NCBI GenBank assembly: GCA_045587105.1
Contig: JAZNBR010000056.1
Span: forward strand, 479-64,478
Length of the DNA stretch: 64,000 nucleotides
From: Ruminococcus sp.
GTDB lineage: Bacteria; Bacillota; Clostridia; Oscillospirales; Ruminococcaceae
Reading direction: 5' to 3'
Notes under the pieces: generated by a model
Database searches by the model: none
What the model was told of the DNA's origin: nothing
The model's input: the letters and a program-made list of their open reading frames with translations, nothing else
Made by a program: the position numbers and the translations under genes
Shown here: positions 951 to 60,095 of the stretch, in pieces
Numbering within the stretch: the stretch's first letter is position 1
How the letters are laid out: the number at the start of each line of letters is the position of its first letter

Positions 951-1511
951 AATTCCGAATTGGCACCAGCGGTGCCCCCGATTCACGTTTCCGTGCGTAA
1001 ACGCACTCACTCTGTACGGCATGGTCAGTAAAAGCTCGCTCGCTTAGACTATTACCTCGGCAGTTAATTATAAATGCCAGCGGTGCCCCCGATTCACGTT
1101 TTCGTGCGTAAACGCACTCACTCTGTACGGAACGGCAGTCTGCTATCGCATACGGTAGAATTTTAATGCGGAATGCGGAATTCGGAATTCGGAATTCGGA
1201 ATTGTGGTGTCGGCATTCGCCGACGGATTGAAGAAATAATTCCGGCGGCAATGTGTAGGGTGCGATGCCTGCATCGCACCGTTGATATGCCGTTTGATTA
1301 ACGGGACGTCGTGGGTGCCGTCCCCTACATTATGATTCCGTAAGAGTTAAGCGAGCGAGCTTTTACTGACCATGCCGTACAGAGTAAGTGCGAAGCACGG
1401 AAACGTGTTTCGGGGGCACCGCTGGTGCCAATTCCGCATTCCGAATTATTTTAAATCTGTCCCGAAGGGACACCACAAGCTAAAGGCTAATAGCTAAAAG
1501 CTAAACAGCTA
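951..1511. repeat. Mosaic repeat cluster a
   Basis: Module order: L(+) 962-1063; L'(+) 1076-1164; CGGAATK heptamers 1165-1203; B(+) 1204-1233; GTAGGG-hairpin doublet 1254-1329; L(-) 1338-1429; heptamers 1430-1447; B(-) 1448-1477; GCTAANN heptamers 1478-1511. The same modules recur at 13 other sites in the window, in both orientations. Confidence 0.9.
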
Positions 1512-2486: not shown

Positions 2487-2706
2487 GGACATTTATGCGG
2501 ACGACCAATGGTCGTCCCTACAAATTGTCACACGACATTTTTATCGTATGAATATAACGACGGGCGGACACATGGGTCCGCCCCCTACGAATTAATGTCA
2601 GCAGGTGTAATATTTTAATTTTATCCCGTCAGGGACACCATAGCTAAAGGCTAAAGGCTAACAGCTAATAGCTCATAAATAAAGGCTAAAGGCTTAATTC
2701 CGCATA
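2487..2706. repeat. Mosaic repeat cluster b
   Basis: Two GTAGGG-hairpins in minus orientation (2498-2522, 2561-2588), B(-) at about 2611-2641, and a GCTAANN heptamer array 2641-2695. Modules are shared with clusters a, e, f, h and n. Confidence 0.85.
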
Positions 2707-3583: not shown

Positions 3584-3681
3584 AAGTCACCTCCCTTTTT
3601 CTGATATATACATTATACTCGTTTTTTCCGATAATGTCAAGGGCGGCAGCGTGACGGTATGTGTAAAATAAATATAGGCAA

Positions 3682-3757
3682 TGTAGGGTGCGATGCCCAC
3701 ATCGCACCGCAGACGAATCACATTCATAACGGGCGGATGTAGGCATCCGCCCCTACA
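3682..3757. repeat. Mosaic repeat cluster c: inverted doublet of GTAGGG-headed hairpins
   Basis: TGTAGGGTGCGATG-CCCA-CATCGCACC ... GGGCGGATG-TAGG-CATCCGCCCCTACA. Both hairpins are identical to those at 47713-47790. Confidence 0.9.
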
Positions 3758-3811
3758 ATTAAAATTATTTAAACATTAAAATCGTTTTGCGTGGTGACGC
3801 ATTGACAAAAC

Positions 3812-6201: not shown

Positions 6202-6251
6202 GCTCTTAGCTCTCAGCCGTTAGCCTTTAGGGTCGCACACATGGGTGCGAC
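6202..6251. repeat. Mosaic repeat cluster d: heptamer array plus TAGGG-hairpin
   Basis: GCTCTTA GCTCTCA GCCGTTA GCCTTTA, then GGTCGCAC-ACATGG-GTGCGAC, immediately after the thiI stop. Confidence 0.75.
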
Positions 6252-6299
6252 TATGCCAATATCATTGTTATATCACATAAAGAATAGAAGGTTTCAACA

Positions 6300-6834: not shown

Positions 6835-8541
6835 ATGAACGATTTACACGGCGGTTCTGAGGAACTCACCAGAGCTGAGAAAATTAAAAGAATAAAAAAA
6901 TCACTGCATCCGGAAGCACCTGCACCGAAGCCGGCAGTTCCCGAAGCTTTTGCACCGAAGCCGGCAGTTCCCGAAGCTCCTGCACCAGAGCCGGTCAGTG
7001 TATCTGCGGAATCCGACTGGGAACAGAAGCTTACACGCTTTCTGGAAGAAAAAAAACGTGCTCCCAGACCTTCCGGCGGAAGAACGGCGGAAAGTATTCT
7101 TGCTGAGCTTTTCGGCGAGGACTGCCTGACTTCCTCACCTGAGCCGAAAATCATCCCTGAACCAGTGCCGGAGCCGGAGGTAATTCCCGAACCAGTGCCG
7201 GAGCCGGAGGTAATCCCCGAACCAGTGCCGGAGCCGGAGATAATCCCCGAACCAGTGCCGGAGCTGGAGATAATCCCCGAACCAGTGCCGGAGCCGGAGG
7301 CAATTCCCGAACCAGTGCCGGAACAGGAAGTAATTCCCGAACCAGTGCCGGAACAGGAAGAATCCGGCAAAAAGAAAAAGGAAAAAAAGAAGAAGGAAAA
7401 GAGTTCCGGAGCAGTCACAAAGAAAAAGAAGAAAAGGACTTTCAAACAGCGATTCTTAGGGCTTTTTCCGCAGAAGGGCGACAAGGTTTCTGAAATTATC
7501 CGCAAGATTATCTTTCTGATTTCAATAATTGCAATCGTAGTCTGCGGATATCTCGTGGCTGACTACTACTTTGAACTCTGGCAGAGCAGGAAAATTACTG
7601 AGGAGGTCAGTAATCTCTACTGGACGTACGAAACAACAGAGCCGGCAACAGGCGAGGAGCATCCCGAAATCGAGCCGGACGGGGAGGGCAGGGAAAAGAA
7701 GGTCTACAAGCTTCTGCCCGGAGCAGAAAAGCTGCTCGACATCAACAAGGATGTTATCGGCTACATCAAGATAGACGGTACTCCAATTGACAACGTTGTA
7801 CTCAGGGGCGAGGACAACGTCGAATACCTTGACAAGAAGATAAGCGGCGAAAAGAACAGAACAGGAGAGCTTTTCCTTGACTGGCGCAATCACTTTGACG
7901 ACGTTGACGAGGAAGGTCATCTCAAGTACGGCAATTCGCACAATCTCATTATTCACGGTCATGCCATGAAGGATGAGTCGATGTTCGGCTCGCTTATAAA
8001 ATACCGCACAACGGACGGCTATTACAGCGAGCATCCGATAATTTACCTCAACTCGAATTACAGCCACTATACCTATAAGATTTTCTCTGTTTTCGTTGTT
8101 GACGCAGAGGATAAGACAGATACAAGGATGAACTGCTGGGATAAGCTCAATTTCACCAGCGAGGTGGATTTCTACGACTTCGTAAACGACGCAAAAAGGA
8201 GAAATATCCACACAAATGACGTGGATGTAAAGTACGGCGACCAGCTTCTTACGCTGTCAACCTGCGATACCTACCTCGGCGACAGGGGACGTCTTATTAT
8301 CATGGCACGCCGCGTCAGAGAGGGCGAGGATCCTCTTGAGGGAACTCAGAACAGCACCAGAAACCACAATATCAAGTGGCCTACGCTGTACTATAACTCG
8401 AATTCCGGCAAGTATGACCCCGATGATTTCGTTCCGTACAACGCACCGGCAGAGGAAAAAAAGCCTCAGTCCGGAGCTGAACAGCCAACATCCGCACAGA
8501 CGACATCCGCACAGACAACAACGGTATCCTCAGGAGTGTGA
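6835..8541 (+). CDS. srtB: Class B sortase with a ~245-aa low-complexity cytoplasmic N-terminal extension
   Basis: ORF 6757..8541 trimmed to ATG 6835. Contains [10 protein letters not shown] repeats, a Lys-rich block and a TM segment. The sortase B core is visible: [33 protein letters not shown]. Confidence 0.85.
6913..6995 (+). repeat. About 2.7 copies of a 30-bp in-frame tandem repeat ([10 protein letters not shown])
   Basis: GAAGCACCTGCACCGAAGCCGGCAGTTCCC repeated with a few substitutions. Confidence 0.85.
7153..7362 (+). repeat. Seven near-identical 30-bp in-frame tandem repeats ([10 protein letters not shown]) inside the first sortase gene
   Basis: ATYCCBGAACCAGTGCCGGARCNGGARRWA x7, read directly from the sequence. 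Confidence 0.95.
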
Positions 8542-11164: not shown

Positions 11165-11165
11165 T

Positions 11166-11407
11166 AATTCGGAATGCGGAATTCGGAATTAATTGTATCG
11201 GCTTCGCCGATGGATTGAAATTTAAATGGCAACTGTTTTTTACGGTTGCCATTTGTTATTTTTTGATATTTTACGTTGTGTGGACATTTATGCGGACGAC
11301 CAATGGTCGTCCCTACAATCGGATTCATATAATTTTCGGTATAATATTTTAAATCCGTCCCGAAGGGACACCACAGCTAAAAGCTAACGGCTAATAGCTA
11401 AAAGCTG
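11166..11407. repeat. Mosaic repeat cluster e
   Basis: CGGAATK heptamers, B(+) 11195-11222, terminator hairpin, GTAGGG-hairpin(-) 11292-11317, AT-rich linker, B(-) 11347-11375, GCTAANN array. About 170 bp is collinear with clusters f and h in opposite orientation. Confidence 0.9.
11226..11265 (+). terminator. Rho-independent terminator after the SpoIID-domain gene (part of cluster e)
   Basis: ATGGCAACTG-TTTTTTA-CGGTTGCCAT followed by TTGTTATTTTTT. Confidence 0.8.
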
Positions 11408-11468
11408 AATTTATATAATATTCATGAAAATGCACAATTCTGTTGGTTGGATTTGTGCATTTTTGCAC

Positions 11469-25294: not shown

Positions 25295-26887
25295 ATGGCA
25301 GAATCAACAATTTTAAGAGAAACCAAAATCGGTCAGAAGGGCTTTATCAAAGAAGACGTTATGACCTACATAGACGAGCTTAATTCTAAGATCGTTTCCC
25401 TCGAGGATGAGCTCAAAAAGGGTGCTCCCGCTACTCCTGTCGATCAGCAGGAAATTATCAAGTATCGCAATCAGATCGACAACCTTCAGGAAAAGCTCAA
25501 CGCTTCAAATAACGCTCTCAGAGCTGCTAAGAAGGAAGTAGAAGAACTCCAGCAGCAGCATGACTCCGATCTTAAGATCATCGAACAGCTTAAGGCTGGC
25601 GGTCCGGGTGCGGCAGCTGCAGCAGCTCAGTCCAACGCTCAGACAGCAGCAGCTCTTGAAGCAGCTAAGAAGGAAATCGACAAGCTCAACGCTCAGCTTA
25701 AGGAAGCTCAGGCTAAGGCGGCAGCTCCTCAGCAGAACGCTCAGAACGCTCAGAACGCTCAGGCTGTTGCGGCTCTTGAAGCAGCTAAAAAGGAAATCGA
25801 CAGACTCAACGCTCAGCTTAAGGAAGCTCAGGCTAAGGCAGCAGCTCCTGCACCTGCTGAACAGGCAGCCAATAACGCAGAAATCGCTAAGGTTAAGCAG
25901 GAAATCGCAAGACTTACAAGCGAACTCGGCAATAAGTCCAAGGAAATCGCTGAGAGAGACAATACAATCGCTCAGATTACCAAGGATAAGGAAAATACAG
26001 CGGCTCAGCTCAAGTCCAAGGACGATGAAATCGCTAAGCTCAATGGCGAGATCTCATCACTTAATGGCGAAATTACATCACTTAAGGAAGCTGCAAGCGA
26101 TCCTACTGCTCAGATGGGACTTATCTTCGCTGAGGCTCAGAAGACTGTATCTATGCTGAAAACTCAGGCTAAGGCTGACGCAGAAAAGACTGTATCAGAC
26201 GCAACTGAAAAGGCTGAGGCTATCCTCAGTGAGGCAAATGCCAAGGCTGAAAAGACAATCAGCGAGGCTAACGTTACTGCTGAAGCCTGCATCAACGAAG
26301 CTAACGATCAGGCTAAGTCAACTGTTGACAACGCTAACAAGCACGCAGATAAGGTTAACGAGATGTCCTCATCAGTAAGAGCTATGCTCCTTAAGGAAAT
26401 CGAAAGCGTTAATACTAAATTCAACGATATATCTTCAGTTCTCAACCGCCTTACAAGTCAGGCAACTGACCGCATGAGCGAGGCTCAGCTTATTATCGGC
26501 GACGCTAAGAAGTCAATCGGCAGTGCTGAGGGAATTCAGAAGGCTGAGGCTCCTAAGGCTGATTTTAAGGCTTCTGAAGCTCCTAAGGCTTCACTCTCCG
26601 ATATCGGAAAGGAAGCTCCGTCGGCATCATCTGACGCTAAAAAGGACGATAAGTATGATCCCTTCGCAAGCATAGGCTCTGCCGGATCGTATGCAAGCAA
26701 GAATCCTGTTTATAATAACAACAATAACAACAGCAAGCCGGCAGCGGCTCCTGCACATTCATCTGCTCCCGCACCTGCATCAGCACCAAAGCAGAATGCA
26801 GCTCCTAAGAAGAATAACTTCGGCTTCGATATGGAAGCTCTCCTTAAGGCAGCAGAAGAAGAAGCAGCTAAGAATCCCGAAGAATAA
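25295..26887 (+). CDS. Long Ala/Gln/Lys-rich coiled-coil protein with a DivIVA-like N-terminus
   Basis: 530 aa. The N-terminus (GFIKEDVMTYIDELNSKI) resembles the DivIVA/GpsB head. Heptad-rich body, internal duplication, poly-Asn tail. Located immediately downstream of ftsZ. Confidence 0.7.
   Translation: MAESTILRETKIGQKGFIKEDVMTYIDELNSKIVSLEDELKKGAPATPVDQQEIIKYRNQIDNLQEKLNASNNALRAAKKEVEELQQQHDSDLKIIEQLKAGGPGAAAAAAQSNAQTAAALEAAKKEIDKLNAQLKEAQAKAAAPQQNAQNAQNAQAVAALEAAKKEIDRLNAQLKEAQAKAAAPAPAEQAANNAEIAKVKQEIARLTSELGNKSKEIAERDNTIAQITKDKENTAAQLKSKDDEIAKLNGEISSLNGEITSLKEAASDPTAQMGLIFAEAQKTVSMLKTQAKADAEKTVSDATEKAEAILSEANAKAEKTISEANVTAEACINEANDQAKSTVDNANKHADKVNEMSSSVRAMLLKEIESVNTKFNDISSVLNRLTSQATDRMSEAQLIIGDAKKSIGSAEGIQKAEAPKADFKASEAPKASLSDIGKEAPSASSDAKKDDKYDPFASIGSAGSYASKNPVYNNNNNNSKPAAAPAHSSAPAPASAPKQNAAPKKNNFGFDMEALLKAAEEEAAKNPEE
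25652..25849 (+). repeat. In-frame duplication inside the coiled-coil gene
   Basis: 78-bp segments 25652-25729 and 25772-25849 differ at about 4 positions (120-bp period). They are separated by 3 x CAGAACGCT (QNA). Confidence 0.85.
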
Positions 26888-33594: not shown

Positions 33595-34223
33595 CGAAAA
33601 AGGAAATTGCAGCTCTTGCGTGCAGGGAGCTTGAAAGGCTCTATCCCGATATCGGATGTACTCTCGACTACGAAAAGCCCTACGAGCTGATGTTTGCGGC
33701 ACGTCTTGCGGCTCAGTGTACGGACGCAAGGGTGAATATCGTCACGAAAACGCTTTTTGTGAAATATCCCACGCTTCAGGCATTCGCAGACGCCGATCTT
33801 CAGGAGCTTGAACAGGATGTCCGACCGTGCGGATTTTACAGGACAAAGGCTCTCAGTCTGAAAACAATGGCGGCACAGCTGATTGAGAATTTCGGCGGCG
33901 AGGTTCCCTCCACTATGGAGGAGCTTCTCACGCTGTCAGGAATCGGCAGAAAGACGGCAAATCTCATGCTCGGCGATGTTTTCGGAAAGCCGGCGATTGT
34001 TACCGATACGCACTGCATCAGGATTTCGGGACGTCTCGGACTTACCGAAAGCAAGGAGCCTGCAAAGGTCGAAAGGGAGCTTGTAAAGCTGATTCCGCCG
34101 GAAATTTCGTCTCATTTCTGTCATCAGACAGTCCAGTTCGGACGTGATATCTGTCGTGCGAGAAAGCCGGAATGCGGTATATGTCCGCTGAATTATTTCT
34201 GCAAGCACTATAATGAATTATGA
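33591..34223 (+). CDS. nth: Endonuclease III
   Basis: 210 aa; HhH-GPD (LSGIGRKTANLM), Fe-S cluster C-x6-C-x2-C-x5-C at the C-terminus; apparent TTG start. Confidence 0.9.
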   Translation: MTKKEIAALACRELERLYPDIGCTLDYEKPYELMFAARLAAQCTDARVNIVTKTLFVKYPTLQAFADADLQELEQDVRPCGFYRTKALSLKTMAAQLIENFGGEVPSTMEELLTLSGIGRKTANLMLGDVFGKPAIVTDTHCIRISGRLGLTESKEPAKVERELVKLIPPEISSHFCHQTVQFGRDICRARKPECGICPLNYFCKHYNEL

Positions 34224-34392
34224 GCTATTAGCCTTTAGCCATTAGCTTATGGTGTCCCTTCGGGACGGATTGAAATATTATACCAGAAAATTATATGAAA
34301 CCGTTTGTAGGGGCGACCCTTGCGGTCGCCCATTGCATTTTGTATAGATGATTGACGGACCCACAACGACACAAAACAACGTAAAATAGCCG
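34223..34392. repeat. Mosaic repeat cluster f
   Basis: TTAGC-type heptamers, B(+) 34249-34276, AT-rich linker, GTAGGG-hairpin 34306-34331, tail. Collinear with the reverse complement of cluster e and with cluster h. Confidence 0.9.
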
Positions 34393-35821: not shown

Positions 35822-36098
35822 GCAGCGTGACGCTGCACCCGGCTCACGTTTCCGTGCTTCGCACTCACTCTGTACGAGGCGGCAGTCTGCTATCGCATAC
35901 GGCAGAAATACCTGACGATAATTTGTAGGGGCGGACACATAGGTCCGCCCCTACAAATTGATAACGTCAGAAATGTGAGTTTTTTAAATTCATCGGCGAA
36001 GCCGATACAATTAATTCCGAATTCCGAATTCCGCATTCCGCATTAAAATTCTGCCGTATGCGATAGCAGACTGCTGCTCCGTACAGAGTCACGCTGCA
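35821..36098. repeat. Mosaic repeat cluster g
   Basis: L'(+) begins on the G of the TAG stop. Contains a 32-bp perfect palindrome TGTAGGGGCGGAC-loop-GTCCGCCCCTACA at 35924-35955, B(-), heptamers and a partial L'(-). Fills the whole convergent gap. Confidence 0.9.
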
Positions 36099-38448: not shown

Positions 38449-38801
38449 GGCACCAGCGGTGCCCCCGATTCACGTTTCCGTGCTTCGCACTCTCTCTGTA
38501 CGGCATGGTCAGTAATAGCTCGCTCGCTTAGACTATTACCTCGGCAGCAGCGTGACGCTGCACCCAGTTCACGTTTCCGTGCTTCGCACTCACTCTGCAC
38601 GGAGCGAAAGTCTGCTATCGCATACGATAGAATTTTAATGCGGAATTCGGAATTGTGGTGTCCCTGACGGGACAAATTTAAAATATTATACCGGAAATTT
38701 ATATGTAACCAATTGTAGGGTCGACCATTGGTCGTCCGCATAAATGTCCGTATAACGCAAAATAACAAAAAAATAATGGCGACCATTTTTGTGGTCGCCA
38801 T
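38449..38801. repeat. Mosaic repeat cluster h
   Basis: Full long element (L+L') 38449-38645 starts right after the ddh TAA. It is followed by heptamers, B(+) 38656-38690, linker, GTAGGG-hairpin 38713-38740 and a terminator hairpin. Confidence 0.9.
38767..38801 (-). terminator. Terminator for the minus-strand lipoprotein gene (part of cluster h)
   Basis: ATGGCGACCA-loop-TGGTCGCCAT; on the minus strand it is followed by TTATTTTTTTG. Confidence 0.7.
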
Positions 38802-39297: not shown

Positions 39298-39336
39298 ACA
39301 ATCACGCTCTTTCAGGAATAATATTTTAATTCGTTG

Positions 39337-39547
39337 GTGTAGGGGGCGGTGCCTTCGACGCCCCGTTACGCACGGAAACGTGAATCGGGGACACCGCTGG
39401 TGTCGGGTGCAGCGTCACGCTTTCATATAAAAACCAACGCATTATGTTTCTAACGTATGCGATAGCAGACTGCCGTTCCGTACAGAGTAAGTGCGTTTAC
39501 GCACGGAAACGTGAGCTGGGTGCAGCGTCACGCTGCCCGCTGGTGCC
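39337..39547. repeat. Mosaic repeat cluster i
   Basis: GTAGGG-hairpin 39338-39366, a partial L(-), and a full L'(-) 39445-39547 whose nested hairpin ends 1 nt from the anti-sigma stop codon. Confidence 0.9.
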
Positions 39548-39548
39548 A

Positions 39549-42071
39549 TTAAAATACAGCTTCGTCTATAACCTGCATTGTTTCAATGTCAAATGAAATA
39601 AACTTGCTTCCGCAGAGAATATACGCATAATCCCCTACATATACAGAGCGGCAGAAAATATCATTTTCGCTGTATTCTTCAATCTCACTGTCAATAGTTC
39701 CTCTGTACACGAATTCTCCGTCCACGAAATTGAAGAACGCATAGCCGCTTTCATACTCCAGATATTCGTAATCGTAAGCCCATGTTTCCTTCATTATCGG
39801 CACACCGATGAGATTCTTCTCCGGAGCGATAAGCAGAGCCTTTCTCTCCCATACAGCCACGGAATTTATCCAGCTGTTGTCGTCCTGAAGTATCTCGTAT
39901 GTGTCGATAGCGTCAAGGTTGTAGGGGTCGGAATTGTCGAACATTGTCAGCTTGATACCCTGTTCGATGCCGTCCTCGTCAGCGGCTACACCGAAGCCGA
40001 GAAGCATTCCTTCCTCCCACTGCTGCATATAGGTGCTGTATCCAAGAATCTTGAATTCGTCCATGATTGTCGGGTTTGCCGGATCGCTGAGGTCAATTGC
40101 AAAGAGGGGATCTGTCTGCTCGTAGGTCACGACATAGGCTGTATTTCCGCTGAAATTAACGGACTTTATCTCCTCGTTAACGCCGAAATCAGTCAGACTT
40201 CCCACGATATTCATATCCATATCAAGAACATAAACACGGTTGTCACGCTTTGTGTGGGTATGCGATACAAAGCTCTCAGTGTGGGCTTTTCCGTTTTCAT
40301 CGTACCATGTGTATTCCTGTTCCTTGTCCTCGTAGGAATCCTTTGTGGTCGCAATGCGGAAGTATCCGCCGTATTCGCTCATTGAGAACTGATCCTTGAT
40401 TCTGCCCTCTACCTTGCCGTTTGCCGCAGGAGTAATGCTTCCGCCGCCGATAGCAATTCTTGTGATTTCTGTATCATCCCAGCCGATCGTGGTGTAGAGA
40501 TTTCCGGCAGAGCTGTAAATTTCGCCTGTATAACCGGCAAGAGCCTTTGAATCAACGGCTGTGATTTCGCCGGAAGTGTTGAGGTCGATACTGCCGATAA
40601 CTGTGCAGCTGAAAGTATTTCCCTCCTCAAGCTCCTCCTCAGGCATGAGGATATCCTCAGGTGCAAGGAATGTCGCAGACTTGCTCACGCCGCACTTTGG
40701 AACATAGCTGTCAAGCTGTTCCTCGTCGTCAATGTGGCTGAACTGCTGTGTTGTGTAGTCGGAAACGAGGTACATAATTCCGTCAGGAGCAATTCTCACG
40801 TCATCGTAGGAGCCTTCCTGATAGTATGTGTCGATAAGCTCCGGAGATTCGCCTGTTGTGTATACCGATACGAAAACTGCACTCTTTGTGCTGAAATAAG
40901 TTGATTCAGGTGTCTTGATCCTGTCACCGATGAGCGTATCAAATATAATATTTCCGCTGTTATATTCTTCATCTTTGCTGCCGGAAACAGTTCCCACAAC
41001 GAGAAGCATATCGTTGTAGAGATACATATCGTTGACGTAAAGGCTCTTTTCGGTGTAGCCCTCTCCGAAAGCGTAGTCGGAAGTAACCTCGATGTCGATA
41101 GCCTCCGCAGAAGTGAACTCTCCGTCATCAACAGCGGCGATATTCAGCTTTGCGGATGTTCCGTTATAGTAGGAGCTGAGACCGAGACGGTATTCAAGAG
41201 CTCCATTTTCGCTGTTATACAGATAGTAGATGTATTCGCCGTCTGTCTTTACGATATCAGCTTCAAGAACGCCCTCCTCCTGATTGTGAGTTTCGGAATG
41301 CTCAGGAGCTTCTTCTTCGTCATCTGATACAGGAGGCTCATCTTCCGGTATTGTTTCAGTAGCAGCGTCAGTAGCGGGTTCAACCGGCGGTTCTTCTGGA
41401 ACAGTTTCAACCGGAGGTTCTTCGGGAGCTATCTCTGTTGCCGGTTCTTCGGGAGCGGTTTCCGGTGCGTCCTGTCTCAGATCTTCATATTCTGCCGCCG
41501 GAACGGTTTCTGGCTGAGGAGCTTCTGCCGCACCATCGGAAGCGGAGTAGTCACCCTTGCCGACAGCGTCTGACGTACCATTTGTTACGGTCGAGTTTGT
41601 ATCGACTGCTGATTCAAAGTAGACTTCATTTTTAACCATATCATCGTAATTTGTGAACTTATGATTCTCGTTATACTTTTCCTCAGCTTTTTTATACAGC
41701 TGGTATACTTCCTTGTAACCGGAAGCTCCGCTCATGTAAGAAGCCTGAACGTTTACGGTGAGATCATCGTCGTCGCCGAGATTGAAAACAGGCAGCTCCG
41801 GAAGCTTCTTGTCAGTGGTGGTTTCAACTTCTGATGTATTTTTTCCTTTATTAAATGAATCCCTTTGTCCTGCAAAATAAACCGATGTTCCGCAGATTAC
41901 CGCACAGGCTGCCGCACCTGCCGTAATTCTTCCGGCGGTTTTCTTTATATTTCTTCTCTTTTTCGCCGGAGCCTTTTCGTCCAGCATGATTTTTATATTC
42001 TCCGGCTCAAGCTCAACCGGAATCGGCTTGTTGTTGAGTGTCTCTCTGATTTTTTCATCGTTTGTACTCAT
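39549..42071 (-). CDS. Membrane anti-sigma factor with a large extracellular beta-propeller domain (Beta_propel/COG4880-like)
   Basis: ORF 39549..42173 trimmed to ATG 42071 behind AAGGAG, 15 nt after the sigma stop. Short cytoplasmic N-terminus, one TM segment, Pro/Glu linker, then EADIVKTDGEYIYYL-type propeller. Confidence 0.75.
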   Translation of the reverse strand: MSTNDEKIRETLNNKPIPVELEPENIKIMLDEKAPAKKRRNIKKTAGRITAGAAACAVICGTSVYFAGQRDSFNKGKNTSEVETTTDKKLPELPVFNLGDDDDLTVNVQASYMSGASGYKEVYQLYKKAEEKYNENHKFTNYDDMVKNEVYFESAVDTNSTVTNGTSDAVGKGDYSASDGAAEAPQPETVPAAEYEDLRQDAPETAPEEPATEIAPEEPPVETVPEEPPVEPATDAATETIPEDEPPVSDDEEEAPEHSETHNQEEGVLEADIVKTDGEYIYYLYNSENGALEYRLGLSSYYNGTSAKLNIAAVDDGEFTSAEAIDIEVTSDYAFGEGYTEKSLYVNDMYLYNDMLLVVGTVSGSKDEEYNSGNIIFDTLIGDRIKTPESTYFSTKSAVFVSVYTTGESPELIDTYYQEGSYDDVRIAPDGIMYLVSDYTTQQFSHIDDEEQLDSYVPKCGVSKSATFLAPEDILMPEEELEEGNTFSCTVIGSIDLNTSGEITAVDSKALAGYTGEIYSSAGNLYTTIGWDDTEITRIAIGGGSITPAANGKVEGRIKDQFSMSEYGGYFRIATTKDSYEDKEQEYTWYDENGKAHTESFVSHTHTKRDNRVYVLDMDMNIVGSLTDFGVNEEIKSVNFSGNTAYVVTYEQTDPLFAIDLSDPANPTIMDEFKILGYSTYMQQWEEGMLLGFGVAADEDGIEQGIKLTMFDNSDPYNLDAIDTYEILQDDNSWINSVAVWERKALLIAPEKNLIGVPIMKETWAYDYEYLEYESGYAFFNFVDGEFVYRGTIDSEIEEYSENDIFCRSVYVGDYAYILCGSKFISFDIETMQVIDEAVF

Positions 42072-42085
42072 ATTGCAAACTCCTT

Positions 42086-42595
42086 TCACGGCACATCCGG
42101 CGTCAGCTGAAGCCGCAGGACCTTTTTTATCGCTGACAGCCTTGCCCTTACCGTACTTGCTTTTATATTGCATATTTCTGATATTTCTTCGCTTGAATAT
42201 CCTCCTAAAACGGACATCGACAGAAGCAGTCTGGAGCCTGTATCAAGCTTTTCAATCGACTCTTTCAGCTCGACTGACTCGAAGTCAAATTCGTTTATGG
42301 ATGTATCCTCTTTAAGTTCGTCAGGAACTTCAAAATAATTCCGCTGGATCTTCTTTATTTTCGCAGAAAGTATCTTCATTATCCAGCCGCGGAAGCTTTC
42401 TGGTTTTTTCAGTTTCTTTATTGAGCAGAAGGCGTCCAGTACAGTTTCGCTCACGGCGTCTGAGGCGTCGTGGGAGCTTCTCAGGCTATACAGTGCGATA
42501 TGGTACATATCCTTGTAGACCTTTGCGTATAGTCTTGAGAAGGCTTCACTGCTGCCCTGCTGTGCAAGACGGACATCTGCGGAGAAATCATTCAT
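42086..42595 (-). CDS. ECF (group IV sigma-70) RNA polymerase sigma factor
   Basis: 169 aa with regions 2 and 4 recognisable (FSRLYAKVYKDMYHIA...; LLLSMSVLGGYSSEEISEI). Confidence 0.88.
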   Translation of the reverse strand: MNDFSADVRLAQQGSSEAFSRLYAKVYKDMYHIALYSLRSSHDASDAVSETVLDAFCSIKKLKKPESFRGWIMKILSAKIKKIQRNYFEVPDELKEDTSINEFDFESVELKESIEKLDTGSRLLLSMSVLGGYSSEEISEICNIKASTVRARLSAIKKVLRLQLTPDVP

Positions 42596-42663
42596 TACAA
42601 TTCCCTCCTTTGAATCGATTCATGAATATAGTGTCAGAAACGGGACAAATTGACAATCAGCAG

Positions 42664-42718
42664 ATAAAAAATCGGCTATATGCACAAAATGCCACACAGC
42701 GAATTGTACATATAGCCG
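42664..42718 (-). terminator. Strong terminator downstream of glk
   Basis: CGGCTATATGYACA stem pair. The minus-strand hairpin is followed by ATTTTTTAT. It is a sequence relative of the terminator at 52922-52978. Confidence 0.75.
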
Positions 42719-42793
42719 AAAAAGTCATAGGTTAAAGGCGATACCTCACAGCTTTTGTGCAAAGCCGTCAGGCGTGCTTTGTGCGGTATTGCC

Positions 42794-43750
42794 TTAAGCG
42801 TTTGCCTTTCCGAGGAATGCCGCACCGATGATTCCGGCGTCGTTGCCGAGCTTTGCAATAACAATCTCAGCGTTCTTCTCGGAATTTCTTGTGTAAACTT
42901 CTTCCTTTACAAGTGCCTTTACAGGGAGAAGCAGAGGATCGCCCTCGTTGCACACGCCGCCGCCGATGCAGAGTACATCAGGCTGGAAGATGTTGATTGT
43001 ATTTGTGATTCCTGCTGCAAGATACTTTATGTACTTGTCAACGACATCCTTTGCAGCCTTGTCGCCGGCTCTCATTGCGTCGAAGGATGTTCTTGCAGTC
43101 ACCTTGTTCTTCTCAGCAGCCATTTCTGCCATTGTGCAGTCGGGGAACATCTCAATAGCTTCCTTTGTCATTCTGATAAGTCCTGTTGCTGAGGAATATG
43201 CCTCAAAGCAGCCCTTTCTTCCGCATGAGCACTGTGCTCCGTCAACCTCGATAACAGTGTGACCTATCTCAGCACCGGCAAAGTTTGAGCCGGAATAAAT
43301 CTTTCCGTCAACGATGATTCCGCCGCCTACGCCTGTTCCGAGCGTGATACATACTGCATTCTTCGCACCCTTTGCCGCACCTGCAACGTATTCGCCGTAT
43401 GCAGCTGCATTTGCGTCGTTCTCGATGAATACCGGCTTGTCGATTGTCTCCTGAATGTACTTCACCATGGGAGTATTCTTGAAGCCGAGATTGTTTGAGT
43501 ACTCGATGATTCCTGTTGCACTGTTTGCGATGCCGGGAGTTCCCACGCCAATCCACTCGATATCGTCGATAGTGAGGTCAGCGTTCTTTACTGCCTGAAG
43601 TGCAACTCTTGCCATATCGTCAGCGATTTCCTTTTCAGGACGCGGACAGTTTGTCTTTGTGCTTGCCTTTGCGATGATGTTGTATTCCTCGTCAACTACT
43701 CCTGCAACGATATTTGTACCGCCAAGGTCAATTCCTACATAGTATTTCAT
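42794..43750 (-). CDS. glk: ROK-family glucokinase
   Basis: ORF trimmed to ATG 43750 (MKYYVGIDLGGTN...) behind AGGAGGA. ROK motifs and the CxCGxxGC zinc site (CSCGRKGC). Confidence 0.9.
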   Translation of the reverse strand: MKYYVGIDLGGTNIVAGVVDEEYNIIAKASTKTNCPRPEKEIADDMARVALQAVKNADLTIDDIEWIGVGTPGIANSATGIIEYSNNLGFKNTPMVKYIQETIDKPVFIENDANAAAYGEYVAGAAKGAKNAVCITLGTGVGGGIIVDGKIYSGSNFAGAEIGHTVIEVDGAQCSCGRKGCFEAYSSATGLIRMTKEAIEMFPDCTMAEMAAEKNKVTARTSFDAMRAGDKAAKDVVDKYIKYLAAGITNTINIFQPDVLCIGGGVCNEGDPLLLPVKALVKEEVYTRNSEKNAEIVIAKLGNDAGIIGAAFLGKANA

Positions 43751-43752
43751 TT

Positions 43753-44706
43753 TTAAATCCTCCTGTTTATTGTTGTCATAATTAAACTGCATGTGCCTTT
43801 TATATTAACTGTACCTGTTCCTGCCGGAACAAATACGCTTGAGCCTTTTTTAACGGGAATCCCCGATATATCGCCTTCTCCGTCCATTACAAGAACGTGT
43901 ATGAAGGTATCTGAGACATTGAATTTAAATTCATCTGATATGTCATACTTTGTTGTAATGAAGTATTCGCATTCACACAGCGGACGGCACTCTGCACCGG
44001 AAAGACTTTTCTTCTCCGGCTGTCCGTATTTTTCAGAAGGCGGCTCCGGCTTCGTGACCTCAAGAGCCTTTTCAATGTGAAGCTCTCTCGGCTTTCCGTC
44101 TGCACCGATACGTCCGTAATCGTAAACACGATACGTCACGTTTGAACTCTGCTGAATCTCAGCGATAAGGATTCCCTTTCCGATTGCATGGAGAGTTCCC
44201 GGCGTGATGAAGAATACATCGCCCTTATGAACCTTCACACGATTGAGCTTGTCAAGGAGCGTATTTTCCTCAATTGCCTTCCGGAATTCTTCCTTCGTGA
44301 TAGTCTCCTTAAAGCCGTAGATAAGCTCCGCACCCTCGTCGCACTCAGCGATGTACCACATTTCGGTCTTGCCGTTGTCGCCCTCGTATTTCCGTGCGTA
44401 TTCGTTATCGGGATGAACCTGAACAGACAGATTATCCCTTGCGTCGATAAGCTTTATGAGAATCGGGAATTCCCCGAAAGCCGTGCAGTCTGTTCTGAAT
44501 GCTTCGGGATGCTTCCTGAGAAAAGCGTCAAGCGTCATTCCGCTGAATTCTCCGCCTGATATAACGCTCATGCCGTCCTTGTGACAGCTAAGCTCCCAGC
44601 TTTCTGCGAGCCTGTCAAGACTGCTTTCCTTACCGAATTCCTCTCTCAGTCTTGTTCCGCCCCAGATGTAGTCCTTAATCGGCGGTATAAGTTCAAATGG
44701 CTTCAT
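43753..44706 (-). CDS. manA: Mannose-6-phosphate isomerase, class I
   Basis: ORF trimmed to ATG 44706 (MKPFELIPPIKDYIWGG...) behind GGAGGA. Motifs QVHPD and HAIGKG. Confidence 0.88.
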   Translation of the reverse strand: MKPFELIPPIKDYIWGGTRLREEFGKESSLDRLAESWELSCHKDGMSVISGGEFSGMTLDAFLRKHPEAFRTDCTAFGEFPILIKLIDARDNLSVQVHPDNEYARKYEGDNGKTEMWYIAECDEGAELIYGFKETITKEEFRKAIEENTLLDKLNRVKVHKGDVFFITPGTLHAIGKGILIAEIQQSSNVTYRVYDYGRIGADGKPRELHIEKALEVTKPEPPSEKYGQPEKKSLSGAECRPLCECEYFITTKYDISDEFKFNVSDTFIHVLVMDGEGDISGIPVKKGSSVFVPAGTGTVNIKGTCSLIMTTINRRI

Positions 44707-45427
44707 TTTTTCCTCCGTATTCTTCCGTGAATTCTTCAAGCGATCCGTTATACACATTGAAATCAATACATTCCTCGTCGCCGTCATAGCCTTCAAGACT
44801 GCCGGAATCGCAGTACTGCCAGAACTTCCAGTCAATGAGGTCAGGCTCCATGTTGACGCTTCTTATCCAGAGGGGATAGTCACTGAAACCTTCTTTGATA
44901 TATCGGCAGTATACCGGAAGCGTAGTGTAGATTATTGGTTTTTCGCCGTAGTATTCCTCCAGCTGTTCAAGCAGAGGTCTGAGGATTGCTTCTGTTTCGC
45001 TTTTAGATGGCTTGTTGTTTTTCTTGTCGGCGTAGTATTCGATATCGACCACAGGCGGAATATCAATTTCATTCCTGCCGACAACCGAAATAAAGTTAGC
45101 CGCCTGAGTTTCGCCGGCACTGTCGAAGCTGAAAAAATGATACGCAGAGAGCTTTATATCTGTTGCCGCCGCGTTTTCGAGATTCCTTCTGGCTGATTCA
45201 TCAACATGACCGCTTCCTTCGGTAGCCTTTATGAATGCAAACGATACATCCTGAGCCTCAAGCTGATGCCAGTCGATAAGCCCCTGATAGTTGGAAACAT
45301 CCACGCCGAATACCGGATATTTATCACGGTTCACCCTTGCGGACGAATAATAGCAGGATGCCGTCATTGCCGCTGCGGTGAGGATTCCGCCGGAAGCAAT
45401 ACAGGTTATCTTTTTTATCAAATGCAA
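44693..45427 (-). CDS. GH25 muramidase (lysozyme)
   Basis: 244 aa; TTG start behind AAGGAG; signal/TM N-terminus; GVDVSNYQG...FAFIKATEG...AYHFF. Confidence 0.85.
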   Translation of the reverse strand: MHLIKKITCIASGGILTAAAMTASCYYSSARVNRDKYPVFGVDVSNYQGLIDWHQLEAQDVSFAFIKATEGSGHVDESARRNLENAAATDIKLSAYHFFSFDSAGETQAANFISVVGRNEIDIPPVVDIEYYADKKNNKPSKSETEAILRPLLEQLEEYYGEKPIIYTTLPVYCRYIKEGFSDYPLWIRSVNMEPDLIDWKFWQYCDSGSLEGYDGDEECIDFNVYNGSLEEFTEEYGGKNEAI

Positions 45428-45460
45428 AATATTATCTCCTTTGTTCTTTGTCTACTCTAT

Positions 45461-45489
45461 ATAATACCCTATTTCGGCGAAATAGTCAA
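45461..45489 (-). promoter_or_regulatory. Sigma-A promoter of the GH25 gene with an 8-1-8 palindrome in the spacer
   Basis: Minus strand: TTGACT (45484-89), 17-nt spacer, TATTAT (45461-66). CTATTTCG-G-CGAAATAG at 45469-45485. Confidence 0.55.
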
Positions 45490-45508
45490 CTGTTTTCTAT
45501 AAAATTTT

Positions 45509-45877
45509 GGCACCAGCGGTGCCCCCGATTCACGTTTCCGTGCTTCGCACTCACTCTGTACGGCATGGTCGGTAATAGCTCGCTCGCTTAGATTATTACC
45601 TCGGCAGTCAATTATAAATGCCAGCGGGCAGCGTGACGCTGCACCCGATTCACGTTCCCATGTGCTGACGCACATTCCTCTGTACGGAACGGCAGTCTGC
45701 TATCGCATACGGCAGAATTTTAATGCGGAATTGGCACCAGCGGTGCCCCCGAAACACGTTTCCGTGCTTCGCACTCACTCTGTACGGCATGGTCGGTAAT
45801 AGCTCGCTCGCTTAGACTATTGCCTCGGCAGTCAATTATAAATGCCAGTGGGCAGCGTGACGCTGCCCGCTGGTGCC
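45509..45877. repeat. Mosaic repeat cluster j: full long element 45509-45725, a second L copy 45737-45838, and a nested terminal hairpin
   Basis: About 95% identical to the copies at 962-1175 and 38449-38645. The last hairpin, GGCACCAGYG[GGCAGCGTGACGCTGCC]CGCTGGTGCC, ends directly at the GGDEF gene stop. Confidence 0.92.
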
Positions 45878-47690: not shown

Positions 47691-47803
47691 GAGCCGTTAG
47701 CCGTTAGCTATTAGTAGGGTGCGATGCCCACATCGCACCGCATAACATATCACAATTTTTGACGGGCGGATGTAGGCATCCGCCCCTACAAATGGCTAAA
47801 AGC
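47691..47803. repeat. Mosaic repeat cluster k
   Basis: CCGTTAG heptamers, GTAGGG-hairpin doublet 47713-47790 (hairpins identical to cluster c), and a GCTAA remnant. Confidence 0.9.
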
Positions 47804-52007: not shown

Positions 52008-52120
52008 GATACCTCCATGGATTATTCTTTCTTCTTATTTTATGCTATTATATCATTATACCATTAAATCAGCGATATGTAAAGCTTTTCGGCGAAAAAA
52101 CATTCATGTCATTTTTATTT

Positions 52121-52261
52121 CGTAGGGGACGGTACTCACGACGTCCCGTTAATTAAACGACATATCATCGGGGCGTCGAAGGCGCCGCCCCCTACACAAT
52201 TATATTTTTCATAAAGTTTTAGTTGTTACAAGGTAGTAGGGGCAACCCATGTGTTCGCCCG
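52121..52261. repeat. Mosaic repeat cluster l
   Basis: GTAGGG-hairpin doublet 52122-52196 plus a third, imperfect hairpin at 52234-52261. Confidence 0.85.
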
Positions 52262-55245: not shown

Positions 55246-55440
55246 AATGCGTAATTGTGGTGTCGGCATTCGCCGACGGATTGAAATCATCTGTTGCCAC
55301 AATCGGATATTTCACGTTTTGCGGACACGTCACGCTGCTGCCGAGGTAATAGTTTAAGCGAGCGAGCTTTTACTGACCATGCCGGACATAGGAATGTGCG
55401 TCAGCACATGGGAACGTGTTTCGGGGGCACCGCTGGTGCC
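55246..55440. repeat. Mosaic repeat cluster m
   Basis: Heptamer remnant, B(+) 55257-55287, and an inverted L copy from about 55311 to 55440 whose terminal GGCACCGCTGGTGCC hairpin overlaps the degV stop codon by 1 nt. Confidence 0.88.
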
Positions 55441-59770: not shown

Positions 59771-60095
59771 GGGACGGATTGAAAAATTTATAACTGCCGG
59801 AAAAAATAACCGATTGTAGAGGGCGGCGTCCACGACGTCTGTGTTTTTTAATGTGTAATGCGTAATTCGTAATTATGGTGTCCCTGACGGGACGGATTGA
59901 AAATATATGTAACAGCAATATGTAGGGTGCGATGCCCACATCGCACCGTTGATATGCCGCTTAATTAACGGGACGTCGTGGGCACCGTCCCCTACAATCG
60001 GCTACATATGAATTTATGGTATTATAATTTAAATCGTCCCGTCATGCACACCACAAGCTAAAGGCTGACGGCTAAAAGCTGATAGCTGACAAGCC
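59771..60095. repeat. Mosaic repeat cluster n
   Basis: Partial B; degenerate GTAGAGGG hairpin 59815-59843; CGTAATK heptamers 59850-59874; B(+) 59875-59906; GTAGGG-hairpin doublet 59921-59996 (about 92% identical to 1254-1329); B(-) 60024-60054; GCTRANN array 60055-60095. Confidence 0.9.

Follow-up and report, generated by a model that had tools for sequence, protein, structure and literature searches.

To our knowledge nearly all work on REP/REPIN-RAYT systems has been done in Proteobacteria. Where they come from and what they bring to the host is still a matter of debate. GTAG REPs are on record from Proteobacteria, Cyanobacteria, Chloroflexi and the PVC group (PMC3733652), and in Clostridia only group 1 RAYTs have been noted, without REPs (PMC5581495). 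A preliminary description of the DNA studied here called such repeats unexpected in a Firmicute, which agrees with these published surveys of GTAG REPs and RAYTs. No description of a GTAG REP/RAYT system in gut Clostridia was found in the literature, where searches combining RAYT and Firmicutes were swamped by unrelated words. The DNA is a stretch of 64,000 nucleotides, called the window below. Its host is a Ruminococcus-like bacterium of the Clostridia, whose closest database relative is the sheep-gut MAG RGIG6295.

The E. coli REP/BIME system with TnpA(REP) (RAYT group 2; 4ER8) resembles the present one in its 5' GTAG foot beside a G+C-rich hairpin. In both systems the REPs are extragenic, alternate in orientation and favor two linker lengths, and both pair two unlike REP subtypes, as with Y and Z. 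On the enzyme side, a single-copy Y1 enzyme is common to both systems, with the HuH, Tyr and GTAG-contact residues kept and the same fold by predicted model. The two differ in the stem, which is a perfect 9 bp here while the E. coli enzyme needs a bulge (PMC8266576). They differ further in that the RAYT coding sequence contains REPs here, in a protein identity of about 21% and in the host, which belongs to the Clostridia and is not a gammaproteobacterium.

The REPINs of Pseudomonas and Stenotrophomonas, with their group 3 RAYTs, share palindromes that are short and perfect; in S. maltophilia the REP measures 23 nt, with a stem of 8 bp and a loop of 3 nt (PMC8266576). Inverted doublets as the copied unit and several REP subtypes per genome are further likenesses, as is the folding of two doublets of the window (52122-52195 and 59922-59995) as one long hairpin. 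Unlike in these REPINs, the commonest doublet here is heterotypic (alpha+gamma) and forms two separate hairpins, and the clusters are mixed with unrelated repeat families.

By its features the system is also like TnpA(REP) subclass 2.4 (Quentin et al. 2018; group 4 of Bertels et al. 2017). The two share canonical GTAG REPs that have G-C pairs at the stem foot, "double foot" REPs (here 35925-35954) and in-frame REPs that lie within tnpA(REP) in peripheral loops and leave the gene unbroken (PMC6006769). The HuH-to-Tyr distance is unlike, at about 62-64 residues here compared to a reported median of 88. Subclass 2.4 was described as common in Cyanobacteria and Bacteroidetes, with scattered occurrences in other groups, and Firmicutes are not named in the text and supplements consulted (PMC6006769).

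DDE MITEs and REP-targeting IS elements are comparable in that a 150-nt alpha+gamma unit is bounded by terminal inverted repeats and by target duplications of 9 bp. IS1397 and ISPpu9/10 are IS elements that target REPs. Here, unlike in REP-targeting IS, the REP doublet lies inside the MITE and is not its target. As far as we know, the MITE is set apart from both groups by its fixed position 16 nt from -35 hexamers.

Repeat elements of the window and of related loci

The motif GTAGGG occurs 28 times in the window compared to 13.6 ± 4.0 in dinucleotide shuffles, none of which reached 28. GTAGG with a stem of 6 bp or more was found at 18 sites compared to 1.43 ± 1.31 (maximum 5) in 100 shuffles, so that the copy-number excess named as a check in the preliminary description is more than 10-fold. 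A covariance model was built from 82 distinct REP copies and the window was scanned with filters off. About 20 GTAGGG hairpins had been described. The model placed 19 elements, in agreement with the positions given for them: 18 at E < 0.02 and a weak one at 52234 (E = 0.08). Matches at E < 0.02 on the plus strand lie at 1253, 3681, 34305, 38713, 39337, 47712, 52120, 59814 and 59920. Those on the minus strand lie at 1300-1330, 2496-2523, 2559-2590, 3728-3758, 11291-11318, 47761-47791, 52167-52197 and 59967-59997. An extra match at 35923-35956 (E < 0.02), absent from the earlier list, is a palindrome with a head on either side. The copies listed earlier at 59815 and 52234 hold as sites (E = 0.004 and 0.08) and not as intact repeats, the head of the former being GTAGAGGG and the latter being weak and decayed. 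The features of the window are as follows.

1255..1328, unstranded: head-out doublet alpha+beta, with alpha at 1255-1280 (plus) and beta at 1303-1328 (minus); pattern search, covariance model and fold
2499..2521, minus strand: REP of the delta subtype, 23-nt class, GTAGGGACGACCATTGGTCGTCC; pattern search and covariance model
2562..2588, minus strand: REP, GTAGGGGGCGGACCCATGTGTCCGCCC; pattern search and covariance model
3612..3640, minus strand: sigma-70-like promoter of consensus sequence, TTGACA-17-TATAAT, 12/12, 16 nt from the MITE end and facing the gene at 3583-3284
3657..3681, plus strand: left arm of the MITE that bears the alpha+gamma doublet, beginning with the 12-bp terminal repeat GTATGTGTAAAA; 16-copy sister-genome alignment
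3683..3709, plus strand: REP of the alpha subtype, GTAGGGTGCGATGCCCACATCGCACCG, with a GTAG head, a stem of 9 bp and a loop of 4 nt; covariance model 44.7 bits
3730..3756, minus strand: REP of the gamma subtype, GTAGGGGCGGATGCCTACATCCGCCCG, paired head-out with the alpha REP at 3683 across a 22-nt spacer; covariance model 46.9 bits
11294..11316, minus strand: REP of the delta subtype, inside a repeat block at about 11165-11409
34307..34331, plus strand: REP, GTAGGGGCGACCCTTGCGGTCGCCC; pattern search and covariance model
35925..35954, unstranded: double-headed REP, a perfect palindrome, GTAGGGGCGGAC...GTCCGCCCCTAC; fold z = -10
38715..38737, plus strand: REP of the delta subtype with one stem mismatch; pattern search and covariance model
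39339..39364, plus strand: REP of the zeta subtype, opening a repeat block of about 210 nt at 39336-39547
47714..47789, unstranded: head-out doublet alpha+gamma, with alpha at 47714-47739 (plus) and gamma at 47764-47789 (minus), without MITE arms
52122..52195, unstranded: head-out doublet beta+zeta, with beta at 52122-52147 (plus) and zeta at 52170-52195 (minus), folding as one long hairpin
52236..52261, plus strand: weak, decayed REP, GTAGGGGCAACCCATGTGTTCGCCCG; covariance model E = 0.08
59815..59843, plus strand: decayed REP with the head GTAGAGGG; covariance model E = 0.004
59922..59995, unstranded: head-out doublet alpha+beta, with alpha at 59922-59947 (plus) and beta at 59970-59995 (minus), folding as one long hairpin

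All REP copies of the window are intergenic, lying outside an ORF-based gene map that takes up 88% of it, and their density is about one copy per 3.4 kb. They are arranged as singles, as head-out or head-in inverted doublets and as BIME-like mosaic clusters. A hairpin without a head was seen at 6231-6253. A search of the whole window against Rfam at gathering thresholds gave no match, so the hairpins have no Rfam family. A CRISPR reading of the repeats was dropped, a regular array being absent.

Five head-out doublets of unlike subtypes, described earlier as about 75 bp long, are real and measure 74-78 bp (1254-1329, 3682-3757, 47713-47790, 52122-52196 and 59921-59996). Direct reading of the two alpha+gamma doublets (3682 and 47713) bore out the earlier observation that both hairpins are identical and the spacers different. 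The alpha+beta stretches 1248-1329 and 59915-59996 have 91% identity, spacer included, the unit of 1248-1329 is also found in the related locus L078 (92-95%) and sister genomes hold at least 16 copies of the alpha+gamma unit. Copying of the doublet together with its spacer is a REPIN trait. Across the window and related loci the modal spacer is 22 nt for head-out pairs (n = 70) and 25-27 nt for head-in pairs (n = 62), and the commonest pairing is heterotypic alpha+gamma. Of the traits of BIMEs, alternating orientation, set linker lengths and the combination of two subtypes are found. The BIMEs of E. coli are further marked by binding of IHF, DNA gyrase or DNA polymerase I. Folding gave one long REPIN-like hairpin each for 52118-52199 (beta+zeta) and 59918-59999 (alpha+beta), two separate hairpins each for alpha+gamma (3676-3763 and 47710-47793), unlike the REPIN type, and a mixed result for 1251-1332. 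Of the REP/REPIN-like architecture proposed earlier, the one-hairpin REPIN fold applies to 52122-52195 and 59922-59995 and not to alpha+gamma.

The exact 26-mer GTAGGGTGCGATGCCNNCATCGCACC is present in at least 116 loci from at least 45 species-level assemblies, labelled Ruminococcus, Acutalibacteraceae, Oscillospiraceae, Candidatus Fimenecus and similar. Several repeat-bearing assemblies carry the names Bacteroides, Bifidobacteriaceae or Agathobacter. The window and 116 related loci (841 kb, 45 assemblies) contain 360 REPs; as carrying the alpha repeat was the criterion for these loci, REP density and the predominance of alpha are biased outside the window. The consensus of the 360 copies is GTAGGG-nnn-GATG-CCCA-CATC-nnn-CC(G). 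The unit is 26 nt long (23 nt in a minor class) and comprises an unpaired GTAG foot, a G+C-rich 9-bp stem and a 4-nt loop. The main 26-nt class numbers 239 copies, has G at the sixth position in 99% and is closed by CC(G).

Constancy of the head had been expected to survive the alignment of further copies. All 82 distinct sequences in the 26-nt class carried GTAG(GG), which, as the search pattern itself demanded GTAGG, means an absence of divergent heads among hairpin-bearing copies and is not an independent test. Paired cells made up 95.4% of the alignment, a percentage inflated by the hairpin filter through which the copies were selected. That filter leaves compensatory changes uninflated. 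Change on both sides of the stem was counted in 152 cells compared to 37.5 ± 5.8 in shuffles, and none of 500 shuffles reached 152. It was strong in the lower stem and the signal was lost once partners were slid. The stem covaries.

G+C-rich, intergenic hairpins would also be expected of ordinary intrinsic terminators, or of G+C-rich palindromes that arose by chance in A+T-rich spacers, and one copy was flagged as terminator-like. It is very improbable that the hairpins are either. The intrinsic terminator reading is contradicted by a missing T-run after the stem, where T is 0.23-0.43 at +27 to +35. Copies also lie between divergent genes and upstream of promoters, not just after genes. The invariant GTAG head and the fixed length of 26 nt are foreign to terminators, and the excess over shuffles is at odds with chance.

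REP-containing blocks differ between the window and L078 at orthologous sites, at 95.5% identity. The block of about 210 nt at 39336-39547 is matched by 17 nt in L078. The same kind of difference was found with the sister genome L134 (92-97.6% identity in its four longest aligned blocks), which has only a short stretch at the site of the repeat block at about 11165-11409.

RAYT-like genes in related genomes

No Y1 transposase or RAYT was found in the 64-kb window when all ORFs of at least 30 aa were searched with a RAYT profile and ten small or unassigned ORFs with Pfam. None was found among the 20 sampled loci of the sister MAGs RGIG6295 and RGIG6339. RAYT-like ORFs are present in loci L092, L105, L068, L094, L015 and L025, all from genomes with the identical 26-nt repeat. 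They matched the NCBIfam family REP_Tyr_transpos at E = 4e-16 to 2e-19. Curated cut-offs were missed, with 58-70 bits compared to 80 for NCBIfam NF047646 and 17.5-20.9 compared to 23 for Pfam PF01797 (Y1_Tnp), and these were the sole family matches of the candidates. PF01797 is poorly suited to class 2 TnpA(REP) proteins according to Quentin et al. (PMC6006769). The RAYT family comprises at least 7970 protein clusters at E <= 1e-5.

The sole PDB sequence match of the RAYT-like protein was 4ER8, and its identity to the E. coli protein is only about 21%. The top PDB fold match of its AlphaFold model (pLDDT 83.9) was 4er8_A (E = 5e-7, TM 0.62, rmsd 3.3 Å over 147 columns). The next fold matches were IS200/IS605 transposases with rmsd of 6-14 Å. 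Residue roles in E. coli TnpA(REP) were taken from PMC6006769. The catalytic residues are kept, with the HuH pair H59/H61 found as H77/H79, Y115 as Y141 and N119 as N145. The GTAG-contact residues W94, Q95, E100, H101 and R104 of 4ER8 align to W120, Q121, D126, H127 and R130, and the E-to-D change is known from subclasses 2.5 and 2.7 (PMC6006769). The motifs PNHIH and YIxxN, which contain H77, H79, Y141 and N145, are invariant among 65 RAYT homologues.

Y1/RAYT genes with adjoining hairpins, which the preliminary description had linked to the repeats, were thus found in related genomes, with repeats inside or beside the gene. Two head-out REPs lie in frame within the RAYT gene in L105, L068, L117, L118/L121 and L122, and an alpha REP lies 74 nt downstream of it in L092 and L094. 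The REP-encoded peptide VGxDAHIxP is present in 100 of the 120 best RAYT homologues. The gene is single-copy with fixed synteny across the contigs shown (e.g., HPr-RAYT-UvrC) and looks domesticated. It is truncated in L015.

The truncated gene, together with the absence of a RAYT from the window, is what would be seen if the hairpins were retained for a host function, such as protection of mRNA 3' ends, insulation of transcription or a site for gyrase or nucleoid proteins, and the RAYT link were historical, the RAYT itself perhaps lost and the repeats persisting or decaying slowly. The decayed copies at 52236 and 59815 and the headless hairpin at 6231-6253 fit such a history, and E. coli REPs have host roles of this kind (PMC6006769). 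This explanation is nevertheless unlikely. Identical 26-mers in at least 45 assemblies and near-identical doublets within a genome point to recent copying rather than selection site by site, and repeat content is unlike at orthologous sites of genomes about 95% identical.

The MITE around the alpha+gamma doublet

In sister genomes the type of doublet found at 3682-3757 forms the center of a 150-nt MITE that ends in 12-bp terminal inverted repeats, GTATGTGTAAAA and TTTTACACATAC. Sixteen copies in RGIG6339 and RGIG6295 have 89-95% identity over 101-150 nt. Direct duplications of 8-9 bp flank all 11 complete copies in the sister genomes and are perfect 9-mers in six. The window copy has kept its left arm (3657-3681). 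Its right arm after 3757 is degenerate, and no recognizable right end or target duplication was found there.

Duplications of 9 bp are a product foreign to Y1 enzymes and so argue for a DDE transposase rather than a RAYT in the alpha+gamma sub-family. The chances are about even that the doublet at 3682-3757 is cargo of the MITE and was moved by a DDE-type transposase. This would apply to alpha+gamma only and is compatible with RAYT movement of the repeats in general. The 16 similar copies, the left arm retained in the window and the occurrence of the MITE in either orientation at a fixed distance to promoters are in its favor, as is the flipped orientation between orthologous sites of L059 and L060. 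It is weakened by the second alpha+gamma doublet (47713-47790), which has no MITE arms, by the other doublet types, which have no terminal repeats, and by the missing right end and duplication of the window copy. No autonomous IS bounded by MITE ends 400-4000 nt apart was found in the sampled loci. These loci were chosen by the alpha REP, so MITE copies without the REP core are not visible in the sample.

In most copies, and in either orientation, 16 nt separate the MITE end from a sigma-70 -35 box. A metagenome scan with the MITE arm gave two loci, a small number, with the 16-nt spacing in both. REPs outside the MITE had no peak in promoter offset. A literature search on promoter-targeting insertion sequences gave nothing relevant to a bacterial element with a fixed distance to promoters, and we know of no such element with a fixed 16-nt distance to -35 hexamers. 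We tentatively suggest, at somewhat less than even odds, that the MITE with the 3682-3757 doublet integrates at a set position of sigma-70-type promoters. The order would be 9-bp duplication, 7 bp and -35 hexamer, which would put the end of the element near -52 whichever way it faces. If true, this would mean promoter-directed bacterial transposition, or that TTGAC is recognized at a set distance and insertions survive only where the promoter is real. The REP hairpins would then be passengers and could serve strong promoters as an upstream module or an insulator.

The repeats as REPs of gut Clostridia

The repeats have the traits of GTAG-tagged REPs: a 5' unpaired GTAG foot, a short conserved G+C-rich palindrome and multicopy extragenic occurrence. 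The pattern, copy-number and related-genome RAYT results support this interpretation. As related gut Clostridia with the identical repeat encode a matching RAYT, the system is of a known type in a group for which a description was not found. By analogy with E. coli TnpA(REP) it is probable that the window repeats are GTAG-tagged REPs moved by a RAYT, and on the same grounds we infer a RAYT in the genome of the window and cleavage by it.

By homology with the E. coli enzyme, a single-copy, chromosomally fixed RAYT would bind the folded single-stranded hairpin. The GTAG foot would be read by the conserved W-Q...D-H..R patch, and the HuH/Tyr center would cut beside the REP and rejoin the strands. 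REPs or doublets would thereby be copied into fresh intergenic sites. The alpha+gamma sub-family, including 3682-3757, spreads additionally as the core of the 150-nt MITE with target-site duplications.

Repeats this dense are likely to disrupt MAG assembly and may add to mis-binning, as the repeat-bearing assemblies named Bacteroides, Bifidobacteriaceae or Agathobacter suggest. Gut Clostridia provide an independent Gram-positive system in which the reading of GTAG and a perfect stem by a RAYT can be tested. Two further questions can be put to this system: why in-frame REPs persist within RAYT genes, and what interplay there is between REPs and other mobile DNA.

REP hairpins in the window and in related genomes

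The sequence at 3682-3757 reads TGTAGGGTGCGATGCCCACATCGCACCG, a 20-nt spacer and CGGGCGGATGTAGGCATCCGCCCCTACA, giving two GTAG-headed hairpins that face outward. GTAGGG occurred 28 times in the window compared to 13.6 ± 4.0 in shuffles, and about 20 of the 28 were followed directly by a G+C-rich stem. A strict pattern (GTAGG, then a stem of 6 bp or more in which one mismatch was allowed) matched 18 window sites compared to 1.43 ± 1.31 (maximum 5) in 100 dinucleotide shuffles, a more than tenfold excess. A covariance model was built from 82 distinct REP copies and run over the window without filters. It returned every coordinate of the roughly 20 hairpins listed in the preliminary description, together with a palindrome at 35923-35956 with the head on both sides. 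The copies at 52234 and 59814 were weak or decayed. The five head-out doublets of mixed stem subtypes (repeat family D3) were also as first described. Every copy was intergenic, though the genes of the ORF map take up 88% of the window. No Rfam family was found for the window REPs. A hairpin at 6231-6253, GGTCGCACACATGGGTGCGAC, is REP-like with TTAG in place of GTAG before the stem.

The window and the related loci (841 kb) held 360 REP copies, 239 in a 26-nt class and 70 in a 23-nt class. The consensus is yy-GTAGGG-nnn-GATG-CCCA-CATC-nnn-CC-G. GTAGG was demanded by the search, so conservation of the head is not independent for its first five bases; the sixth was G in 99% of the 26-nt class, and the proposed GTAGGG head was thus kept as more copies were aligned. 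The closing CC hardly varied. In the stem, three positions are free to change yet remain complementary (TGC/GCA, GCG/CGC, CAT/ATG, GTC/GAC, GAC/GTC, CCC/GGG, AAC/GTT and others). Across the 82 distinct sequences 95.4% of cells were paired, a percentage inflated because the aligned copies were picked by a hairpin filter. The compensatory changes are not inflated in this way: both sides had changed in 152 cells compared to 37.5 ± 5.8 in shuffles (0 of 500 as high), and this signal was lost when the stem partners were slid. Intrinsic terminators were ruled out because no T-run follows the stem in the family alignment.

Neighboring REPs in the window and loci formed 70 head-out pairs (modal spacer 22 nt), 62 head-in pairs (mode 25-27 nt) and 40 tandem pairs. 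This alternation of orientation with two linker lengths resembles BIMEs. The commonest doublet was alpha plus gamma, two different subtypes. The doublets at 52118-52199 (beta plus zeta) and 59918-59999 (alpha plus beta) each fold as one long imperfect hairpin, a likeness to REPINs, whereas each alpha plus gamma doublet gives two separate hairpins. The doublet at 1251-1332 had a mixed fold.

The window contains the dcw (cell-division/cell-wall) cluster, with mraZ, rsmH, murE, mraY, ftsW, murG and ftsZ read from translations; Pfam domains cover the orthologues of the first few genes only, up to rsmH, in L134, a locus of a sister genome. The region 39548-45656 was 95.5% identical to L078, which belongs to the sheep-gut MAG 'Ruminococcus sp. 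RGIG6295'. NifS of the window was matched at 100% and 97% by proteins on NCBI contigs, of which one is named Ruminococcus sp. A species-representative genome collection was scanned with the alpha hairpin GTAGGGTGCGATGCCNNCATCGCACC, which was present at no fewer than 116 loci in at least 45 assemblies, including Ruminococcus sp. CAG:488 and CAG:563, Acutalibacteraceae, Oscillospiraceae, Candidatus Fimenecus and 'Eubacterium sp.'. Many copies were also seen in assemblies labelled Bifidobacteriaceae, Bacteroides faecis, Bacteroidaceae, Agathobacter rectalis and Coriobacteriaceae (CAVIFY, CAVFTC, CAVGRW, CAVHPP and CAVJDU; loci L001, L003, L007, L012 and others), one of which has a RAYT. All of these assemblies are probably mis-binned or mislabelled.

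RAYT genes with REPs in or beside them

No Y1 gene was found in the 64-kb window by a Pfam scan of ten small or unassigned ORFs or a RAYT profile run over every ORF of 30 aa or more. RayT-related ORFs were found among the at least 116 loci in L092, L105, L068 and L094, with a truncated one in L015 and, where the contig stops, a fragment in L025. The first query was an E. coli RayT sequence, and identity was then confirmed independently. The sole NCBIfam match was REP_Tyr_transpos (E = 4e-16 to 2e-19; 58-70 bits, under the 80-bit equivalog cut-off), the sole Pfam match was Y1_Tnp, slightly under threshold, and the sole PDB sequence match was 4ER8, TnpA(REP). In a PDB fold comparison, an AlphaFold model of a candidate (pLDDT 83.9, pTM 0.79) was closest to 4er8_A (TM 0.62, rmsd 3.3 Å), followed by IS200/IS605 transposases with much larger rmsd. 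Residues with known roles in E. coli (PMC6006769) had counterparts in the candidates.

Residues of E. coli RayT and the RAYT candidates, from alignment to 4ER8
HuH motif: E. coli H59 / H61; candidates H77 / H79
Catalytic Tyr: E. coli Y115; candidates Y141
Essential Asn: E. coli N119; candidates N145
GTAG contacts: E. coli W94, Q95, E100, H101, R104; candidates W120, Q121, D126, H127, R130

Homologues comprised at least 7970 protein clusters at E ≤ 1e-5, those named being a 'transposase' of Oscillospiraceae, Ruthenibacterium, Clostridia or Syntrophomonadaceae. The RAYT genes were single-copy amid housekeeping genes, with identical neighbors in each contig shown (e.g., ptsH-RAYT-uvrC), in agreement with the description of domesticated RAYTs (PMC5581495).

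Two head-out REPs lay within the RAYT reading frame, one each side of the HuH motif, in L105, L068, L117, L118/L121 and L122.

RAYT genes with internal REPs
L105 5780-6349
L068 3173-3643
L117 3001-3498
L118 3001-3465
L122 187-693

The alpha REP in frame encodes V-G-C-D-A-H-I-A-P and its inverted partner G-A-M-W-A-S-H-P-T. Across RAYT genes these take the forms VGxDAHIxP and G(A/T)MWASxPT; among the 120 best homologues, 100 have the first peptide and 78 the second. The stem-variable bases coincide with whole codons, so the encoded peptide varies with REP subtype, and the variable codons of homologues track the covarying stem positions. In the AlphaFold model the first peptide is a β-hairpin tip and the second a disordered loop. 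L092 and L094 have a RAYT without internal REP and an alpha REP 74 nt downstream. Related genomes with the identical 26-nt REP thus encode a RAYT-like gene, and the REP lies inside that gene or 74 nt from it. The truncated RAYT at L015 6320-6770 adjoins ptsH, and other repeats replace the segment between its two internal REPs, as if coding sequence had been lost by an event between them.

Subclass 2.4 of Quentin et al. has in-frame REPs in tnpA(REP), G-C pairs at the stem foot and 'double foot' REPs (PMC6006769). Compared by features, all three are present here, but HuH and Tyr are about 62-64 residues apart compared to a reported median of 88 (PMC6006769).

The 150-nt unit around the alpha plus gamma doublet

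Alignment of copies of 3657-3757 from sister MAGs revealed a 150-nt unit with the alpha plus gamma doublet at its core. It ends in perfect 12-bp inverted repeats, GTATGTGTAAAA and TTTTACACATAC, and folds as single-stranded DNA (z = -7.6). Direct duplications of 8-9 bp flank 11 of 11 complete copies, six being perfect 9-mers. Y1 transposases (IS200/IS605 family) are not known to leave a duplication. The sequence features point to a MITE and to a DDE-type enzyme, cut-and-paste or copy-and-paste, as its mover. Further copies of this putative MITE were present in L013, L031, L036, L039, L043, L046, L060, L067, L083, L091, L093 and L128-L131.

Putative MITE and promoter in the window
3657-3806: putative MITE, left arm 3657-3681 kept, right arm degenerate
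3640-3612 (-): promoter TTGACA-17-TATAAT

At one orthologous site (L059 5950-6110, L060 2515-2664) the element is present in both genomes, inverted, with an identical promoter-side junction; the flanks in RGIG6295 and RGIG6339, sister MAGs of two species, are 78% identical. Inversion in place would account for this, as would repeated insertion at one and the same position.

A sigma-70-like promoter had its -35 hexamer starting 15-17 nt past the element at 14 of 29 ends, exactly 16 nt in 11 of these, with a 17-nt hexamer spacer in all. These near-consensus promoters can lie at one end or the other, and a single one accompanies most elements. The sequences between their hexamers are unrelated, so they are host promoters. 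The 16-nt spacing was repeated in both later-found copies (2/2) from a metagenome scan and, in L130 and L131, at the promoter of nifS; there L134, which retains the 16 nt, resembles an unoccupied site. REPs outside the element showed no promoter-offset peak. The spacing may reflect integration directed by promoters, TTGAC recognition at a set distance followed by survival at real promoters only, or selection for an upstream function.

Repeat turnover and the standing of the family

Of the larger intergenic stretches of the window, roughly a third is interspersed repeats, including several families unrelated to REPs. A block of about 210 nt starting with a REP (39336-39547) corresponds to 17 nt in L078, and the adjoining intergenic region has wholly different REP sets in the two. 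L134 was 92-97.6% identical to the window over the four longest aligned blocks. Upstream of mraZ, the block including the REP at 11294-11316 spans 294 nt between conserved flanks in the window compared to 65 nt in L134. The thiI-cinA spacer has two intact REPs in L134 compared to only the headless hairpin (6231-6253) in the window.

A second, unrelated family (70-136 nt, small palindromes CACGTTTCCGTG and GCAGCGTGACGCTGC) occurs in both orientations, often beside REPs, and is also plentiful in L134 and L130. Repeat clusters are edged by short tandem runs of a 7-nt motif (GGAATTC, or TAATTCG/TAATGCG), which in L078 and L134 stands in place of larger window blocks. On the 3' side of REP clusters lies a repeat about 56 nt long, TATTTTAAATC-GTCCCGAAGGGAC-ACCAC and then short tandem units like AGCTAAAGGCTAA. 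Two tandem repeats were coding: a 30-nt unit giving (I/V)PEPVPEPE in a sortase-domain protein and, downstream of ftsZ, a duplication of 120 nt within a coiled-coil protein.

Other repeats in the window
Second family: 958-1170, 1340-1433, 35822-35908, 36011-36089, 38449-38692, 39370-39543, 45507-45834, 55338-55439
7-nt tandem runs: 1164-1203, 11165-11190, 36012-36037, 38636-38661, 59849-59874
About 56-nt repeat: 1447-1502, 2611-2666, 11345-11400, 60025-60080, 34210-34275
Coding tandem repeats: 7108-7388, 25634-25849

One survey describes GTAG REPs in Proteobacteria, Cyanobacteria, Chloroflexi and the PVC group (PMC3733652), and another notes only REP-less group 1 RAYTs in Clostridia (PMC5581495). 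A targeted literature search found no further report beyond these surveys. Of all these features, the promoter-adjacent putative MITE has the best chance of being new. The REP/RAYT-type interpretation first proposed is upheld by the RAYT lineage with REPs in or beside the gene in related Clostridia, and on these sequence comparisons the hairpins very likely represent a family of GTAG-REP/BIME type that has its cognate RAYT lineage among gut Clostridia.
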